Of a stretch of DNA of 64,000 nt, positions 2,641 through 34,068 are shown piece after piece. The notes beneath the pieces are model-generated. The model had not been told where the DNA came from and ran no database searches. It saw only the letters and a list, made by a program, of their open reading frames with translations. Source of the stretch: a virus; the IMG/VR virus record IMGVR_UViG_3300007712_000002, positions 1 through 64,000 of that record; one strand, given 5' to 3'. The translations under genes and the position numbers were made by a program. Positions within the stretch are counted from its first letter, which is position 1, and each line of letters starts with the position of its first letter.

Positions 2641-3720
2641 ATGGCACAAGTTTCAAACAGCACCTTTAGAACATTAACAGATACATTGTTCGCAACGAAC
2701 GCAACAGGCGGAATTACCGCTGAGGATTTACGCACACATTTTGATAATATATCAGACAGTGTTCCATTCAAAATTACAGGCAAAACTGCCGCGCCCACTG
2801 TTAACGATGATGTTGACGGTAGTGGTGGTAATGGTAAATTTGCTGTTGGTGATTTTTGGATTGATGAAACAAATGATGCAATATATGTCTGTTTGGACAA
2901 CACAAATGTTACCGCTGTTTGGGAGCAAATAAATGATGGTAATGTTGATTTAAGTGGTAATGATACCGGAGATTTAGCAGAAGGTAGTAATCTTTATTTT
3001 ACAGACGAAAGAGTAGACGACCGTGTTGCTGCAATGTTAGCTGGTGGAACAAATATTGGATTAAGTTACGATGATGGTTCTAACCTACTAACAATCAATG
3101 GACCATCAACCACCGCACAAATATCTGAGGGTAGCAATCTATATTACACAGATGAACGAGTAGACGATCGAGTAAATGATCTTCTTGTTGCTGGATCAAA
3201 TATCACACTTACATATGATGATGGTGCTGGAACAATTACTATTGATTCCTCGGGTGGAGGTGGATCTTTTGCTGTAGAAGATGATGGTGTGAGCATCGTA
3301 GGAACAGCATCAACATTGAACTTCACAGGTTCTAGTGTTACGGTTACAGATGCTGGATCTGGACAAGCGAATATTGCTATAGAAAGTGGTGGTGGAGGAG
3401 GAGGAGGTTTTCCAACTGTTCTAGATGTAACCGCTGATTTCCTTTTCAATCTTGCAGGAATTGACGCAGGCACATACATACGACTTAATAACTCAGGTGG
3501 ATTGCCTTTTGATGTAGAAATTCCATCAAACACATTTTCAGTTGGAGATGAATTTTATATCGAACAATCAGGATCGGGTGCATTAAATTTTACTTCTCTA
3601 GCAGAAGCTGTTACTATTTTAAGTCTTGGAGGCTTAACTCAATCAGCAGGTCAATATGGCGTTGTAACGATTAAGTTTATTGACAATAACGTTGTTAATA
3701 TCAAAGGCGATCTAGCATAA
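2641..3720 (+). CDS. Fibre-like virion structural protein with internal 49-aa repeat
   Basis: Two copies of EGSNLY[FY]TDERVDDRV...YDDG; Gly runs; ends IKGDLA. Confidence 0.65.
   Translation: MAQVSNSTFRTLTDTLFATNATGGITAEDLRTHFDNISDSVPFKITGKTAAPTVNDDVDGSGGNGKFAVGDFWIDETNDAIYVCLDNTNVTAVWEQINDGNVDLSGNDTGDLAEGSNLYFTDERVDDRVAAMLAGGTNIGLSYDDGSNLLTINGPSTTAQISEGSNLYYTDERVDDRVNDLLVAGSNITLTYDDGAGTITIDSSGGGGSFAVEDDGVSIVGTASTLNFTGSSVTVTDAGSGQANIAIESGGGGGGGFPTVLDVTADFLFNLAGIDAGTYIRLNNSGGLPFDVEIPSNTFSVGDEFYIEQSGSGALNFTSLAEAVTILSLGGLTQSAGQYGVVTIKFIDNNVVNIKGDLA
2980..3243 (+). repeat. Two tandem coding repeats, 147-nt period
   Basis: EGSNLYFTDERVDDRV starts at 2980, EGSNLYYTDERVDDRV at 3127. Confidence 0.85.
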
Positions 3721-8421: not shown

Positions 8422-8610
8422 ATGACTTATAATCGATATTTTGAACTTGATCTTGAAGATCTTGAAATCATTGAGTCTGCACTTCGGCAGCAGCTATCAG
8501 CTACAGACAGCCCAGATCGCAAGCGTCTGCTTAACGACATGCTAGGCAAGCTACACCAGCAAAAAACGTGGTATCGTCCCAAAGGCAAAGAACCTTATAT
8601 TTCTGGTTGA
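8422..8610 (+). CDS. Hypothetical protein
   Basis: 62 aa ORF in gene flow. Confidence 0.6.
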   Translation: MTYNRYFELDLEDLEIIESALRQQLSATDSPDRKRLLNDMLGKLHQQKTWYRPKGKEPYISG

Positions 8611-8656
8611 CAAACCAAGGCACATTGCTTATATTGGTAGGGTAAGCAAAGGAGAT
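8605..8656 (+). promoter_or_regulatory. Early sigma70-type promoter/RBS cassette, copy 1
   Basis: TTGACA(8607)-17 bp-TATATT(8630), then GTAAGCAAAGGAGAT; near-identical copies at 9731 and 29261. Confidence 0.85.
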
Positions 8657-9730: not shown

Positions 9731-9782
9731 GGTAGACAAACCAAGGCTTTTTGCTTATATTATATGAGTAAGCAAAGGAGAT
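9731..9782 (+). promoter_or_regulatory. Early promoter/RBS cassette, copy 2
   Basis: TAGACA(9733)-17 bp-TATATT(9756), GTAAGCAAAGGAGAT. Confidence 0.85.
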
Positions 9783-29245: not shown

Positions 29246-29260
29246 AAAAGTTGAAAGAGT

Positions 29261-29312
29261 GGTTGACAAACCAAGCTACCTTGCTTATATTGGTAAGGTA
29301 AGCAAAGGAGAT
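29261..29312 (+). promoter_or_regulatory. Early promoter/RBS cassette, copy 3
   Basis: TTGACA(29263)-17 bp-TATATT(29286), GTAAGCAAAGGAGAT. Confidence 0.85.
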
Positions 29313-29619
29313 GGACATGGCATCCAAAATTGAAATGCTCGCTGCACTGACTCCAGGTTGCAATACTGCGTCTAGCCAGCCTGCAACGATCAGCAGCCGA
29401 AAGTTTGATTTCGACAAGAGCAAGAACCTGTTCCTCGCCGAAGTCAGCGAACTCCAAATCCGCGAGATGGGCTGCTTCTACATTCGCAGTGCTCGCACTG
29501 GCGACACTCGTCTGTTCATGCTCCAGAAAGTGGAGCGTGACGCAAGTGGCGAGGACATTCTCGCCTTTCACTACATCAGCCCGGGACAAGGTCTCAGTGC
29601 TGTTGTGTTCAACGACTAA
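29311..29619 (+). CDS. Hypothetical early protein
   Basis: After early cassette; start may be 29317. Confidence 0.7.
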   Translation: MDMASKIEMLAALTPGCNTASSQPATISSRKFDFDKSKNLFLAEVSELQIREMGCFYIRSARTGDTRLFMLQKVERDASGEDILAFHYISPGQGLSAVVFND

Positions 29620-30608: not shown

Positions 30609-30638
30609 GACAAAGGCGCTCCAAGGGGCGCCTTTGTC
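30609..30638 (+). terminator. Hairpin terminator
   Basis: GACAAAGGCGC-N8-GCGCCTTTGTC. Confidence 0.75.
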
Positions 30639-30639
30639 A

Positions 30640-30690
30640 TTGACACTACCAATACCTTTTGCTAGATTACATGGGTAAGCAATAGGAGAT
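30640..30690 (+). promoter_or_regulatory. Early promoter/RBS cassette, divergent copy 4
   Basis: TTGACA-17 bp-TAGATT, GGTAAGCAATAGGAGAT. Confidence 0.75.
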
Positions 30691-30693
30691 AAA

Positions 30694-31725
30694 ATGACCG
30701 AGATCATTGTCAAGCGTGGACGTTACGGAGAGCAAGAAATTGTCAACCAGCCGTTCACCATGGAGCTCAGCCCGCGCATGGGCAAGAAGGGCATGTATGT
30801 CACAGTTGACGGCACGCCGATCGGACAAAAGCGCAAGGTGCGGGTCCTGATCGACAGCGAAAACGATGTCAAACTCAATGATAGCACCGCTGTTATCCGT
30901 CCCGTGGAAGCACAGGCCGAACCTGAAGTCCAAGCCGAGACTGACGAGCAGATCATGGATCGTATGCGTGAAAAGTTTCAAGTGCTGGATGGTATGACCA
31001 TGGCGGCAGTTGAAGGCCATGTCCGCGCTATGATCGTTACAGGTCCTCCTGGTGTTGGCAAAAGCTTTGGTATCGAAACCACGCTGGAGAGCCTGGATGT
31101 CATGGACAAGGTCACTGACACCGAATTGCATGATGAGACTGCGAAGCGCGGCGTCGAGAAGGTCGCAAGTGCAAGCGCACTGGGCCTTTACCAATTGCTT
31201 TGGGAATACCGTGCAGAAGGAAGCCTGCTTGTTCTGGACGATAGCGACAGCGTCCTAAATGACGAAGCTGGCATCAACATGCTCAAAGCTGCCACTGACT
31301 CGGGCAAGAAGCGCAAGTTGACCTGGCGCACTGAAAGCCGTGTGCTTGAAGATCGCGGCATACCTGACGAGTTCGAGTTTGAAGGTAGCATTATCTTTGT
31401 TACCAACCTTGACTTTGAAAAGTCGCGCGGCAAGATTGGTGAGCACCTCAAGGCTATTGTTAGCCGCTGCCACTACCTGGACATGGGTATCCACGACAGC
31501 CATGAAAAGTTTCTCCGCTGCAAGCAGATTGTGCGTGATGGAATGTTGACGTCCTACAAGTTTGATGATGTGATGATTGATCGTATCCTCACTTACATCG
31601 AGGTCAACCAGAAGTCACTGCGCGAACTTAGCCTGCGTATGGTCAAGAAGATTGCGGACCTTGCTCGCATGGATCCTGATAGTTGGCAGACGTATGCAGA
31701 CCAGACTTGCTTGCGGGGGAAGTGA
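30694..31725 (+). CDS. AAA-family ATPase (early)
   Basis: GPPGVGKS, LVLDDSD, IFVTN, SRC. Confidence 0.8.
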   Translation: MTEIIVKRGRYGEQEIVNQPFTMELSPRMGKKGMYVTVDGTPIGQKRKVRVLIDSENDVKLNDSTAVIRPVEAQAEPEVQAETDEQIMDRMREKFQVLDGMTMAAVEGHVRAMIVTGPPGVGKSFGIETTLESLDVMDKVTDTELHDETAKRGVEKVASASALGLYQLLWEYRAEGSLLVLDDSDSVLNDEAGINMLKAATDSGKKRKLTWRTESRVLEDRGIPDEFEFEGSIIFVTNLDFEKSRGKIGEHLKAIVSRCHYLDMGIHDSHEKFLRCKQIVRDGMLTSYKFDDVMIDRILTYIEVNQKSLRELSLRMVKKIADLARMDPDSWQTYADQTCLRGK

Positions 31726-31726
31726 C

Positions 31727-32035
31727 ATGAACCTGGAATCGCTTCGTGAATATGCTGATCTGCAGGAGGAAGTCCTGCAGATCGCACAGTGTATTGTGGA
31801 TACAGAAGCGTCTGATCCACAGGAAAACGCAGGCGAGCCGCTCAGAGCATACAGATTTACACCTGAACTCTACGTCACTGAAGTGGACCTTTCGCCTATT
31901 AACCAAGGCATGATCTCGATCCACTATGTGGAAGACTGGGGACAGGCTGGCAGTGAGAGCAAAATCTTGCATCGCACCATTGAAGAGTTCTGTGATCCTA
32001 AATACCTTTTTAAATCGATAGAAGATGGAAACTGA
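31727..32035 (+). CDS. Hypothetical protein
   Basis: MNLESLREY after GGGGGA. Confidence 0.55.
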   Translation: MNLESLREYADLQEEVLQIAQCIVDTEASDPQENAGEPLRAYRFTPELYVTEVDLSPINQGMISIHYVEDWGQAGSESKILHRTIEEFCDPKYLFKSIEDGN

Positions 32036-32037
32036 TT

Positions 32038-32301
32038 ATGAATATACCAGATGGTATTGATGGATGGGATTTTGATTTTGATAATACAGTTGTCTTCTAT
32101 CATGATAGTCATGTCCAAATGAAAGACATGAAATCCTGGTTCAGATCATTTTTAAATGACGAAGTGCGTTATGTTCCCGTCGCGCGGTCCGGACCATCAG
32201 GACCATATTCTTGGTGGTTCGAACTTACAGATAACGACTTTGTTATGCTCAAAATAGTATTATCAATCACTGAACCTTCTGCTCCACCACGAACATTCTA
32301 A
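32038..32301 (+). CDS. Hypothetical protein
   Basis: 87 aa ORF. Confidence 0.55.
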   Translation: MNIPDGIDGWDFDFDNTVVFYHDSHVQMKDMKSWFRSFLNDEVRYVPVARSGPSGPYSWWFELTDNDFVMLKIVLSITEPSAPPRTF

Positions 32302-32318
32302 TTACTCAAAGTATCTTC

Positions 32319-32347
32319 TTGACATCATTAAAGAATAAATGTATGTT
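32319..32347 (+). promoter_or_regulatory. Sigma70-type promoter with no downstream ORF before the next promoter
   Basis: TTGACA-17 bp-TATGTT. Confidence 0.65.
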
Positions 32348-32353
32348 ATGAAT

Positions 32354-32433
32354 TAACCAGCCAGTATCATCTCCTTTCCATCATTGCGTCCCTGGTTGGT
32401 CAAGCGGGTCGGGCAAGAGTCCGACCCGCACTC
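32354..32433 (+). ncRNA. Candidate small RNA with anti-SD loop
   Basis: Stem ACCAGCCAG/CTGGTTGGT around CATCTCCTTTCC, then 11-bp GC hairpin. Confidence 0.55.
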
Positions 32434-32448
32434 ATCTATGATAAGTAT

Positions 32449-32477
32449 TTGACAATCATAGATAAAAAGTGTATTAT
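32449..32477 (+). promoter_or_regulatory. Sigma70-type promoter of uvsW (leaderless geometry)
   Basis: TTGACA-17 bp-TATTAT, ATG after a 7-nt gap, no SD. Confidence 0.7.
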
Positions 32478-32484
32478 TATTAAC

Positions 32485-34068
32485 ATGGAAGCAAAAATCG
32501 AGCTGCTCGATGAAGTGAATTGTAAAATTCACGGTCTTAACACGTCTACTAGGCGCAAGTTACATGATGAGTTTAGCTTCATGCTACCTCATGCTTATCA
32601 CGTCCCGGCTTTTAAAATGGGTAGATGGGACGGCAAGACCAACTTCTTCGCTCTAGGCGGCAAAACATATGTAAATTTGTTAGAAGATATTCTGCCCTCG
32701 CTCCTTGAAGAAGGATACGAGGTCAGTCTAATTGACAATCGCAATAAGTATGATCTAGAACTCACTCCAATTGATGTAGATCACTTTGCGGATCGTGTAT
32801 GGCCTGAAGGTCATCCAGTCGCCGGCGAACCTGTTATATTGCGCGACTATCAACTAGAGATCATCAATAACTTTTTGAAGAACCAATCCAGTGTTCAAGA
32901 AGTAGCAACAGGAGCAGGCAAGACACTTATTACAGCCGCCCTGAGCGACCTCATCGAGCGCAGTATGACAGAAGAACAGTTAGTGATGCACAAGCTAACA
33001 ACTGGCAGCGACGGCGGCGCTAGAACTATTGTGGTTGTGCCAAACAAAGGCTTGGTTACCCAAACAGAAGAAGACTACCAAAATCTGGGTCTGGATGTGG
33101 GAGTATATTATGGTGATCGCAAAGAATACAATCGCACCCACACCATCTGCACTTGGCAAAGCCTAGAGATCATACAGAAGAATTTCAAGAACGGCAAAAG
33201 CGACATGAGTCTAGAGGACTTCACACGTGGAGTCATGGCAGTGATTGTTGATGAGGCACACGGCGCCAAGGCTGATGTCCTCAAGGCCATGCTGGTCGGC
33301 GCGTTCCGTAACATACCAATACGTTGGGGGCTAACGGGCACCATACCCCCTGAAGAACACGCCGCAGTGGGCCTCAAGGTATCGTTGGGGCCAGTTGTGG
33401 GAGAGCTAGCAGCCGCTACACTACAAGCTGACGGGGTGCTATCAAACTGTCACGTTGACATAATACAGATGCAAGACAATGTGCTTTATGATAACTATCA
33501 GAGTGAGTTGAGTTATCTTACCACTGACAGCGCAAGACTAGACTACATGGCAGAATTTATCATGGCTATCGCTGGTGAAGAAAATACACTCGTGTTAGTC
33601 GATAGGGTAAAGGCTGGACGAGGCCTACTAGAGAGGCTACCTGAAGACCGAACCGTGTTTGTTAGTGGCGAGATGAAGAACGAAGACCGCCGCGGACATT
33701 ACAAAGATATTTCAAACAGCGATGGAAAGATCATCGTTGCAACCTACGGGGTCGCGGCCGTGGGTATTAACGTTCCCCGAATTTTCAATATGGTGCTTGT
33801 GGAACCTGGCAAGAGCTTTATCCGTGTGATTCAAAGTATCGGGCGCGGATTGCGCCGTGCTGAGGATAAAGATTTCGTCAACATTTACGACATTTGTAGT
33901 TCAGCCAAGTTTAGTAAACGCCATCTCACGTCAAGGAAGAAGTTTTATAAAAAGGCCGAGTATCCTTTCAAGATCAACAAAGTAGATTGGCGACAAGACC
34001 AAAAACTGATTCGTGAATTAGGGAAACGAGTATTAAAGGAACCCCAAGTTGAAAATCTTAACCAGTGA
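32485..34068 (+). CDS. uvsW: SF2 helicase UvsW
   Basis: LRDYQ, ATGAGKT, VDEAH, GLTGT, QSIGRGLR. Confidence 0.9.
   Translation: MEAKIELLDEVNCKIHGLNTSTRRKLHDEFSFMLPHAYHVPAFKMGRWDGKTNFFALGGKTYVNLLEDILPSLLEEGYEVSLIDNRNKYDLELTPIDVDHFADRVWPEGHPVAGEPVILRDYQLEIINNFLKNQSSVQEVATGAGKTLITAALSDLIERSMTEEQLVMHKLTTGSDGGARTIVVVPNKGLVTQTEEDYQNLGLDVGVYYGDRKEYNRTHTICTWQSLEIIQKNFKNGKSDMSLEDFTRGVMAVIVDEAHGAKADVLKAMLVGAFRNIPIRWGLTGTIPPEEHAAVGLKVSLGPVVGELAAATLQADGVLSNCHVDIIQMQDNVLYDNYQSELSYLTTDSARLDYMAEFIMAIAGEENTLVLVDRVKAGRGLLERLPEDRTVFVSGEMKNEDRRGHYKDISNSDGKIIVATYGVAAVGINVPRIFNMVLVEPGKSFIRVIQSIGRGLRRAEDKDFVNIYDICSSAKFSKRHLTSRKKFYKKAEYPFKINKVDWRQDQKLIRELGKRVLKEPQVENLNQ

Follow-up and report, generated by a model that had tools for sequence, protein, structure and literature searches.

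The untranslated 3' region (3'UTR) of the icaR mRNA of Staphylococcus aureus pairs with the Shine-Dalgarno (SD) sequence of its own message (PMC3868564), in Bacillus subtilis anti-SD-like sequences located hundreds of nucleotides (nt) downstream pair with the ribosome site, block initiation and promote decay (PMC12697547), and the interaction between the 5' and 3' UTRs of hbs provides a related precedent (PMC5737220). Here we analyze an element at positions 32319-32433 of a 64,000-nt stretch of viral DNA (hereafter the window; positions 1 to 64,000 of the IMG/VR virus record IMGVR_UViG_3300007712_000002). Genome comparison established its structure, strand, conservation, link to a nearby AAA+ ATPase gene of the replication region and, in a large clade of relatives, gene-specific complementarity to the ribosome site of that gene. 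The balance of the evidence leans slightly towards an anti-ribosome-site RNA, an ancestral feedback hairpin of the AAA+ 3'UTR that here also appears to have an early promoter of its own and could act in trans.

As in the icaR type of control, a pyrimidine-rich anti-SD motif located after a coding region complements the SD region of the same mRNA, with blocked initiation and faster decay as the expected outcome, and in the large clade the gene with the mirrored ribosome site is the one whose stop codon immediately precedes the phage hairpin. The two are unrelated in sequence, however, and the gene in question is a phage gene, for an nrdC.10-like AAA+ ATPase. The phage motif also differs in being presented in a ∼27-nt loop on a covarying stem beside a terminator, and in the window's own clade the element lies one or two open reading frames (ORFs) away from the gene and is equipped with a separate promoter, which would allow it to act in trans.

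Masking of SD sequences in trans is the mode of action of small RNAs (sRNAs) with C/U-rich seeds, such as RsaE/RoxS, 6C RNA and the loops of RNAIII. The phage element resembles this type in that a dedicated promoter precedes a short folded RNA whose pyrimidine loop is unpaired and antisense to ribosome sites, with several candidate targets that share a leader. On the other hand, the element has no Rfam match, the CU-rich loop contains UCUCCU where those sRNAs have a CCC motif, its 3' hairpin lacks the U-tract of a discrete terminator, and its carrier is a giant phage of the lytic type, in which the targets are candidates and their enrichment over shuffled loops is weak.

A conserved two-hairpin RNA on the + strand

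The element is composed of the following features:

32319..32347, + strand: promoter P1, sigma-70-type (TTGACA at 32319-32324, 17-nt spacer, TATGTT at 32342-32347; 10 of 12 matches in a consensus scan)
32356..32400, + strand: stem-loop 1, a 9-bp stem (32356-32364/32392-32400) with a 27-nt pyrimidine-rich loop (32365-32391)
32404..32429, + strand: hairpin 2, GC-rich, 11 bp closing a loop of 4 nt, in terminator position

The predicted start of P1 lies 1-2 nt ahead of stem-loop 1, and no ORF of any length was found 3' of P1 within the element. Stem-loop 1, present in both the minimum-free-energy and the centroid folds, holds CAUCUCCUUU in its loop and, towards the 3' side of the latter, UUGCGUCC. 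The + strand folds at −36 kcal/mol (z = −5.7 versus shuffles, none of which equals it), and the fold of the − strand is poorer (−31.6 kcal/mol, z = −3.2).

A 19-nt word of the loop was found unchanged in 8 related IMG/VR contigs, and looser patterns added L012, L051 and L103, resulting in 8 distinct lineages for the comparison of the window's clade (20 stem pairs × 8 = 160 cells). All 160 stem cells pair, and 6 of the 20 pairs show compensatory changes, a combination of pairing and covariation that was matched by none of 500 shuffles and collapsed in slid controls. For stem-loop 1 (72 of 72 cells paired) one pair is compensatory, three are variable on one side and five are invariant, while 5 of the 11 pairs of hairpin 2, in which all cells likewise pair, have compensatory changes; RNAalifold recovers the same two helices. 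As many as 19 stem cells are G-U or U-G, which turn into A-C mismatches on the − strand, and the fold therefore belongs to the RNA of the + strand.

The whole 27-nt loop is conserved, beyond its anti-SD portion. Its pairwise identity of 0.90 compares with 0.27-0.62 at the 4-fold sites of the downstream gene uvsW, where neutral divergence is saturated, and the P1 spacer, the inter-hairpin linker and the tail are at ∼0.45. The −35 box of P1 shows an identity of 1.0, and each of the 8 lineages has a TAnnnT −10 box at an unchanged distance from it. P1 is retained in L012, whose upstream gene is on the opposite strand, and is therefore no by-product of coding sequence; a trans-acting sRNA would need a promoter of its own, and P1, judged by its consensus, would provide it. 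Being conserved and covarying in relatives, the element is far beyond chance, and we are nearly certain that it represents a real, selected RNA structure of the + strand. A sequence-only reading of this locus had described the same promoter, TTGACA-17-TATGTT, about 80 nt behind it with no real ORF, the stem of 32356/32400 with its pyrimidine-rich loop followed by the 11-bp GC hairpin, and G-U pairs favouring the + strand; all of this holds, and the relatives supply the covariation and loop conservation that a genuine structure should display.

No match to the element of either the window's or the large clade was found among cultured phages by megablast/blastn, and nothing comparable is present in the sequence upstream of uvsW in Atu_ph07 and Phosso; in PA5oct, as judged by annotation only and not by reading the sequence, annotated coding sequences abut uvsW. 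Looser loop patterns run against IMG/VR, metagenomes and 185,579 reference genomes returned, outside the window-clade lineages (L051 and L103 included), nothing but fortuitous matches within coding sequence or genuine ribosome sites of the opposite strand, and the same searches revealed no host copy of the element. ARAGORN finds no tRNA or tmRNA in the window element, and Rfam 15 gives no gathering-score match other than tRNAs in the window or in 8 large-clade loci, with only noise in the window at E values up to 10. The element is single: with a covariance model (R1) the window yields one copy, L013, L014 and six leader-cassette loci (G001-G003) yield none, and whole-fragment hairpin scans of G000, G001 and G006 find it unique on the + strand. 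It is absent from L213, a relative with a 78% identical UvsW, where a promoter and a 14-codon ORF, predicted to be leaderless, occur upstream of uvsW (L213:1080-1210).

The hairpin behind the AAA+ gene and the ribosome site of that gene

The features upstream of the element that bear on its origin are as follows:

30640..30693, + strand: promoter and leader of the AAA+ gene, with GCAAU and AGGAGAU just ahead of the ATG (window form GCAAUAGGAGAU)
30694..31725, + strand: AAA+ ATPase gene (phrog_1250, PHROG E = 5.5e-78)
∼31727-32035, + strand: small ORF, conserved in the window's clade
32038-32301, + strand: ORF of 87 aa without a family match and, as far as the relatives were examined, confined to this genome

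In L214-L217 (UvsW ∼63% identical) a comparable unit occurs at the same position, lacking its own promoter and placed directly 3' of the stop codon of the upstream gene; it is composed of a 13-15-bp stem, a 26-28-nt CU-rich loop starting at or near CUCCUCU, and a terminator hairpin. A pattern taken from this loop matched at least 119 IMG/VR contigs and, among the matches listed, the loop is flanked by a stem of ≥7 bp in at least 83 contigs, corresponding to 61 distinct loci (the large clade). The upstream gene of the stem-bearing contigs, where its ORF was read in the right frame, encodes the AAA+ protein, with a product ending in ..TCM(K/R)R, and in the loci read the hairpin starts ∼5-30 nt past the AAA+ stop codon. 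The downstream gene varies (uvsW in many contigs, unrelated small ORFs in others), which assigns the element to the AAA+ gene rather than to uvsW. Stem sequences are wholly different between lineages with the loop near-invariant, and in a model-fitted alignment of 37 matches, which leans towards structure and includes 3 weak reverse-strand matches, 23 of 25 pairs have compensatory changes and 93.7% of cells pair. More diverged versions with CUCC-repeat loops stand behind the same AAA+ gene in L218, L234 and L270, and distant members of the family carry a true U-tract terminator at the position of hairpin 2. The AAA+ proteins of the window and L216 are 50% identical. By tblastn, which matches nrdC.10 of T-even phages, the gene is a homologue of T4 nrdC.10, and beyond its family the product has only a faint clamp-loader/RFC-like similarity. 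In T-even phages another ORF directly abuts nrdC.10, leaving no such hairpin there.

The AAA+ ribosome site of the large clade reads (A/U)GGAGUGAGA(A/G). Among the matches listed, GAGUGAGA is found at this site in 50 of 61 distinct loci and its exact complement, UCUCACUC, in the loop of 60 of 61. The 558 kb of these distinct loci contain 54 sense-strand occurrences of GAGUGAGA, 50 of them at the AAA+ ribosome site, leaving 4 elsewhere versus 8.5 expected by chance. These statistics point to a gene-specific SD extension that is matched by the loop ∼1 kb downstream in the same transcript. Variant lineages keep the pairing with other letters (GAGGGUGACA / UGUCACUCUC, GGAGUGAC / GUCACUCU and AGGAGUG / CACUCCU). 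In the diverged L270 (G012) GAGGUGGAGA stands, by eye, opposite UCUCCUCCUC with a single U-U mismatch; measured against 339 control ribosome sites, our yardstick for pairing between loop and AAA+ start region, its ungapped score is ordinary (132/339) and its duplex energy low (5/339). Among 103 gene starts in G006, a genome fragment of 75 kb, the best ungapped pairing with the loop is that of the AAA+ ribosome site. Read from the sequences, the large-clade pattern is the signature of RNA-RNA pairing between a 3' flank and a translation start region.

The window and large clades agree in where the element lies (AAA+ operon on one side, uvsW on the other) and in its layout of stem, ∼27-nt loop and GC hairpin, and they share CUCCU and UGCGUC within the loop and AUAAGUA after the hairpin. 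In both clades, at more than 50 loci (e.g. L316), the latter motif (32441-32447 in the window) immediately follows the terminator hairpin, ahead of the next promoter. In the window's clade one or two small ORFs separate the AAA+ gene from the element, and in the window itself two ORFs plus P1 intervene. No terminator-like site was found on the + strand between 30694 and 32404, which makes co-transcription possible. The sequence before P1 (∼32306-32324) resembles the end of the preceding ORF (∼32001-32020), as if duplicated on insertion.

Candidate targets in the window's clade

Gene starts, on which the following comparisons depend, were set by a simple longest-ATG rule. The window is part of a 92.5-kb record estimated as ∼25% complete, and the genome fragments compared are 19-39% complete, so the target searches are partial. 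The early leaders with the best matches to the loop are these:

29260..29313, + strand: early promoter-leader cassette ending in AAAGGAGAUG (repeat family D3), the best ungapped loop match in this genome
8604-8656, 9730-9782 and ∼73593-73640 of the full record: sister cassettes (repeat family D3)

The sequence-only reading had noticed that CATCTCCTTT of the loop (32368-32377) is the exact complement of AAAGGAGATG at 29304-29313, which we confirm. Taken alone this 10-nt match is weak, the chance expectation for a 10-mer being 0.17 occurrences per window, with two copies arising in 3 of 100 shuffles. A further 9-nt match reported for the cassettes "at 8605 and 9731" is real, but these coordinates are those of the cassette starts; the 9-mer itself, AAAGGAGAT, ends the repeated cassettes at 8648-8656 and 9774-9782. 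By ungapped loop match, leaders ending in AAAGGAGAU rank 1, 3 and 5 of 140 gene starts in the window's genome, in agreement with the proposed fit between the loop and the early ribosome-binding sites of the phage. Relatives conserve the AAAGGAGAU-type leader, of which the AAA+ leader is a variant. In the window, GCAAU and AGGAGAU of the AAA+ leader complement the loop's AUUGC and AUCUCCU, over 5 + 7 nt around a bulge. The AAA+ start region of L002 has an 11-nt loop match that includes the start codon (0/339 controls as good), and that of L003 a 9-nt match (3/339). Across the clade the AAA+ start regions match different parts of the loop, and swapping loops between clades reveals only a mild preference for the cognate genome. 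An extended complement of the loop was sought in the 92.5-kb record (∼25% of the genome) and none was found beyond the leaders.

The cassettes at 8604, 9730, 29260 and 30640 have other features in common: the −35 box lies inside a short palindrome, TGGTTGACAAACCA, and TTGCTTA abuts the −10 box. Their leader starts with GUAAGCAA, in place of which a more distant clade has GUAG(A/G)CAG, and this start may be a signal in its own right.

Two other candidate pairings were rejected. In the genome of L012 (G001) a late tail-fibre-like gene on the − strand (∼75428, preceded by ATAAATA) has a ribosome site, GAAGGGAGAU, that is a perfect 10-nt complement of the variant loop; its homologue in the window (2641-2937) is without such a site, and we treat this match as chance. 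Pairing with the 5' end of the uvsW mRNA (AUGGAAG) was discarded because uvsW starts with AUGCAAG in L009 and L010, where the loop is unchanged.

A number of observations weigh against an anti-ribosome-site role in the window's clade. The 7-nt ungapped match of the window's AAA+ leader is not above background (51/339 controls as high), L010 and L005 (GCAAU plus AGGAGA(U)) are also at background level, as are the poor matches of L009, L051 and G001. Shuffled pyrimidine loops match ribosome sites almost as often as the real ones in the three genomes analyzed (p = 0.085 for the window, 0.145 and 0.05 for the others), and the altered loop of L012 (CUCCCUU) has no matching change in the leaders of its genome, G001. 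Conservation of all 27 loop positions exceeds the need of a 7-9-nt pairing. Hairpin 2 is followed by no U-tract in 8 of 8 lineages of the clade and is thus not a textbook intrinsic terminator; with a covarying repeat beyond it, the RNA could run on into uvsW. The start, end and expression of the RNA are themselves predictions. In addition, the covariance model of the large clade (R2) misses the window's version, so homology of the two rests on position, architecture and short shared motifs; from this context we infer that they are homologous.

Some of the same facts would suit a purely structural module at the 3' end of early transcripts, in which the hairpins terminate and stabilise the RNA and the loop is a site for a protein (e.g. 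S1, a KH-domain protein or a phage factor). Invariance of all 27 loop positions would fit a protein site, shuffled pyrimidine loops match ribosome sites nearly as well, and distant members do have a true U-tract terminator. Promoter-early stem-loop (PeSL) cassettes of T4-like phages are repeated, mobile terminator/promoter modules (PMC2839356, PMC4122927), and hairpin 2 with the uvsW promoter P2 has just this layout (PMC4122927), a stem-loop followed by a sigma-70 early promoter between early genes, as does another hairpin-plus-promoter unit at 30609-30668. The PeSL definition leaves stem-loop 1 and P1 unaccounted for, as an extra conserved-loop hairpin precedes the module, and the element, unlike PeSL cassettes, is single-copy per genome fragment and tied to one gene. 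A plain terminator has no need of a second hairpin with an invariant loop, and a protein site leaves unexplained why, among the large-clade matches listed, 50 of 54 sense occurrences of GAGUGAGA are at the ribosome site of one and the same gene. We consider a structural module unlikely, albeit the most serious of the alternatives.

uvsW, translation genes and the proposed role of the element

Downstream of the element the following features are found:

32434-32441 / 32456-32463: inverted repeat ATCTATGA / TCATAGAT, enclosing the −35 box of P2
32449..32477, + strand: promoter P2 of uvsW (TTGACA, 17 nt, TATTAT), an arrangement conserved in all relatives
32485..34068, + strand: UvsW-type DNA helicase gene, 527 aa (Pfam ResIII, Helicase_C, DEAD)

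By tblastn, the helicase shares ∼45-52% identity with its counterparts in jumbo and T4-like phages, Phosso, Atu_ph07 and PA5oct among them. P2 begins 20 nt past hairpin 2, and its −10 box ends 7 nt ahead of the ATG at 32485, so the uvsW mRNA is predicted to be leaderless; with this spacing conserved, the leaderless phage genes invoked by the sequence-only reading have a plausible representative. Other genes predicted to be leaderless, with a near-consensus sigma-70 promoter whose −10 box ends 6-10 nt before the ATG and no SD, are located at ∼73109, 75090 and 77669 of the full record and, with the same promoter layout, at ∼40206, 45844 and 55608 of G006; the uvsW case is conserved across clades. 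The arms of the inverted repeat co-vary in 6 of 7 lineages, L005 having a different AT-rich palindrome instead. The repeat may form a hairpin in the RNA of read-through transcripts or serve as an operator, two roles that look alike because all pairs are Watson-Crick; as an operator it could serve a phage repressor that times uvsW.

UvsW of T4 is made late, and its timing matters for the mode of replication. Control of uvsW in cis is conceivable in this light: read-through from P1 over P2 would occlude the promoter, or long leaders with an SD-less internal AUG would stay untranslated, in either case delaying UvsW. A hairpin 2 devoid of a U-tract in eight lineages and a covarying repeat around the −35 box of P2 would both suit it, as would the position beside uvsW in every lineage of the window's clade, including L012 with its different upstream gene. 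Yet a good terminator closes the element in the large clade, where it follows the AAA+ gene even when the next gene is not uvsW, L213 does without the element despite its closely similar UvsW, and promoter occlusion would require no invariant loop, all of which makes this explanation doubtful. The adjacency of a short, promoter-driven non-coding transcript to the gene of an R-loop helicase is all that would speak for an origin-of-replication primer or R-loop transcript. Neither GC skew nor AT skew has a turning point near 32.4 kb, a pyrimidine-rich, tightly folded RNA is poor for R-loop formation, and the family tracks the AAA+ gene rather than uvsW, so we give this idea hardly any credence.

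Past the end of the window (L310:933-2561; ∼64356-65984 of the record) the phage encodes a full-length IF3 (TIGR00168, E = 2e-45), the 3' end of whose gene overlaps that of bS21 (TIGR00030), followed by ORFs that resemble, by eye, an Hsp20-type small heat-shock protein and a ClpS adaptor. A loop that mimics the 3' tail of 16S rRNA could bind phage or host bS21 or IF3, as a decoy or as a partner in a takeover of initiation, and the side-by-side location of the two genes would be in line with it. Its stretch AUCAUCUCCUUUC would agree in 12 of 13 positions with AUCACCUCCUUUC, the 16S tail of many bacteria. Beyond CUCCU the resemblance is missing in the large clade, and the loop avoids the exact CCUCC core. 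A precedent exists in OLE RNA, which carries an anti-SD mimic bound by bS21 (PMC12054373) and, like the phage RNA, is non-coding, resembles the 16S tail in a pyrimidine stretch and belongs to an organism with a bS21 gene. The OLE mimic, however, is paired with an SD-like strand within a large RNA, whereas the phage loop is open and reads UCUCCU, not CCUCCU. bS21 is encoded in G002, G003 and G006. The co-occurrence is non-specific, as the protein is also encoded in PA5oct, Atu_ph07 and Phosso, which have no element upstream of uvsW. Overall, a 16S-tail mimic appears quite improbable.

The sequence-only reading had proposed a trans-acting anti-SD-loop sRNA that would shut off early or host SD-led mRNAs in general. 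A conserved, structured + strand RNA with its own promoter and an exposed loop antisense to ribosome sites is upheld by our analysis, but the comparative evidence favours a narrower and older role at one AAA+ gene and points to an element that descends from, or is the counterpart of, a hairpin in the AAA+ 3' flank whose loop mirrors the ribosome site of that very gene. According to the anti-ribosome-site reading, the window would encode a small structured + strand RNA of ∼75-80 nt, made from its own host-type (sigma-70) promoter P1 and probably also present at the 3' end of transcripts from the upstream AAA+ gene. Its open pyrimidine-rich loop would pair with the purine-rich leader and SD of the AAA+ gene, blocking ribosome loading and probably causing faster mRNA decay, so as to limit the duration or the amount of AAA+ protein synthesis; in the window's clade the same effect may extend to sister early genes that share the AAAGGAGAU-ending leader. 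Pairing in the cell, its repressive effect and the target genes in the window's clade are the parts of this scheme that are predicted.

A bolder and rather doubtful extension is that in the window's clade the hairpin of the ancestral 3'UTR has turned into an independent early sRNA that works together with phage IF3 and bS21 to re-programme initiation, either by masking AAAGGAGAU-type early (perhaps also host) leaders or by taking the place of the 16S tail in binding bS21, with leaderless mRNAs such as that of uvsW escaping.

The hairpin with its near-invariant loop represents an uncatalogued family of structured RNAs, with at least 119 contigs of uncultured marine T4-like and giant phages matching the loop pattern, and it predicts a specific target, namely the ribosome site belonging to the nrdC.10-like AAA+ gene next to it. 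If true, this would be a clear phage example of long-range anti-SD control written into the 3' flank of a gene, and the window's clade would offer a snapshot of such an element gaining its own promoter and possibly turning into a trans-acting regulator. The AAA+ protein, uncharacterised and conserved from T4 to the giant phages of the ocean, would then be one whose dosage is apparently under tight phage control. In a genome that also has IF3, bS21 and genes predicted to be leaderless, the element bears on how large phages manage translation.

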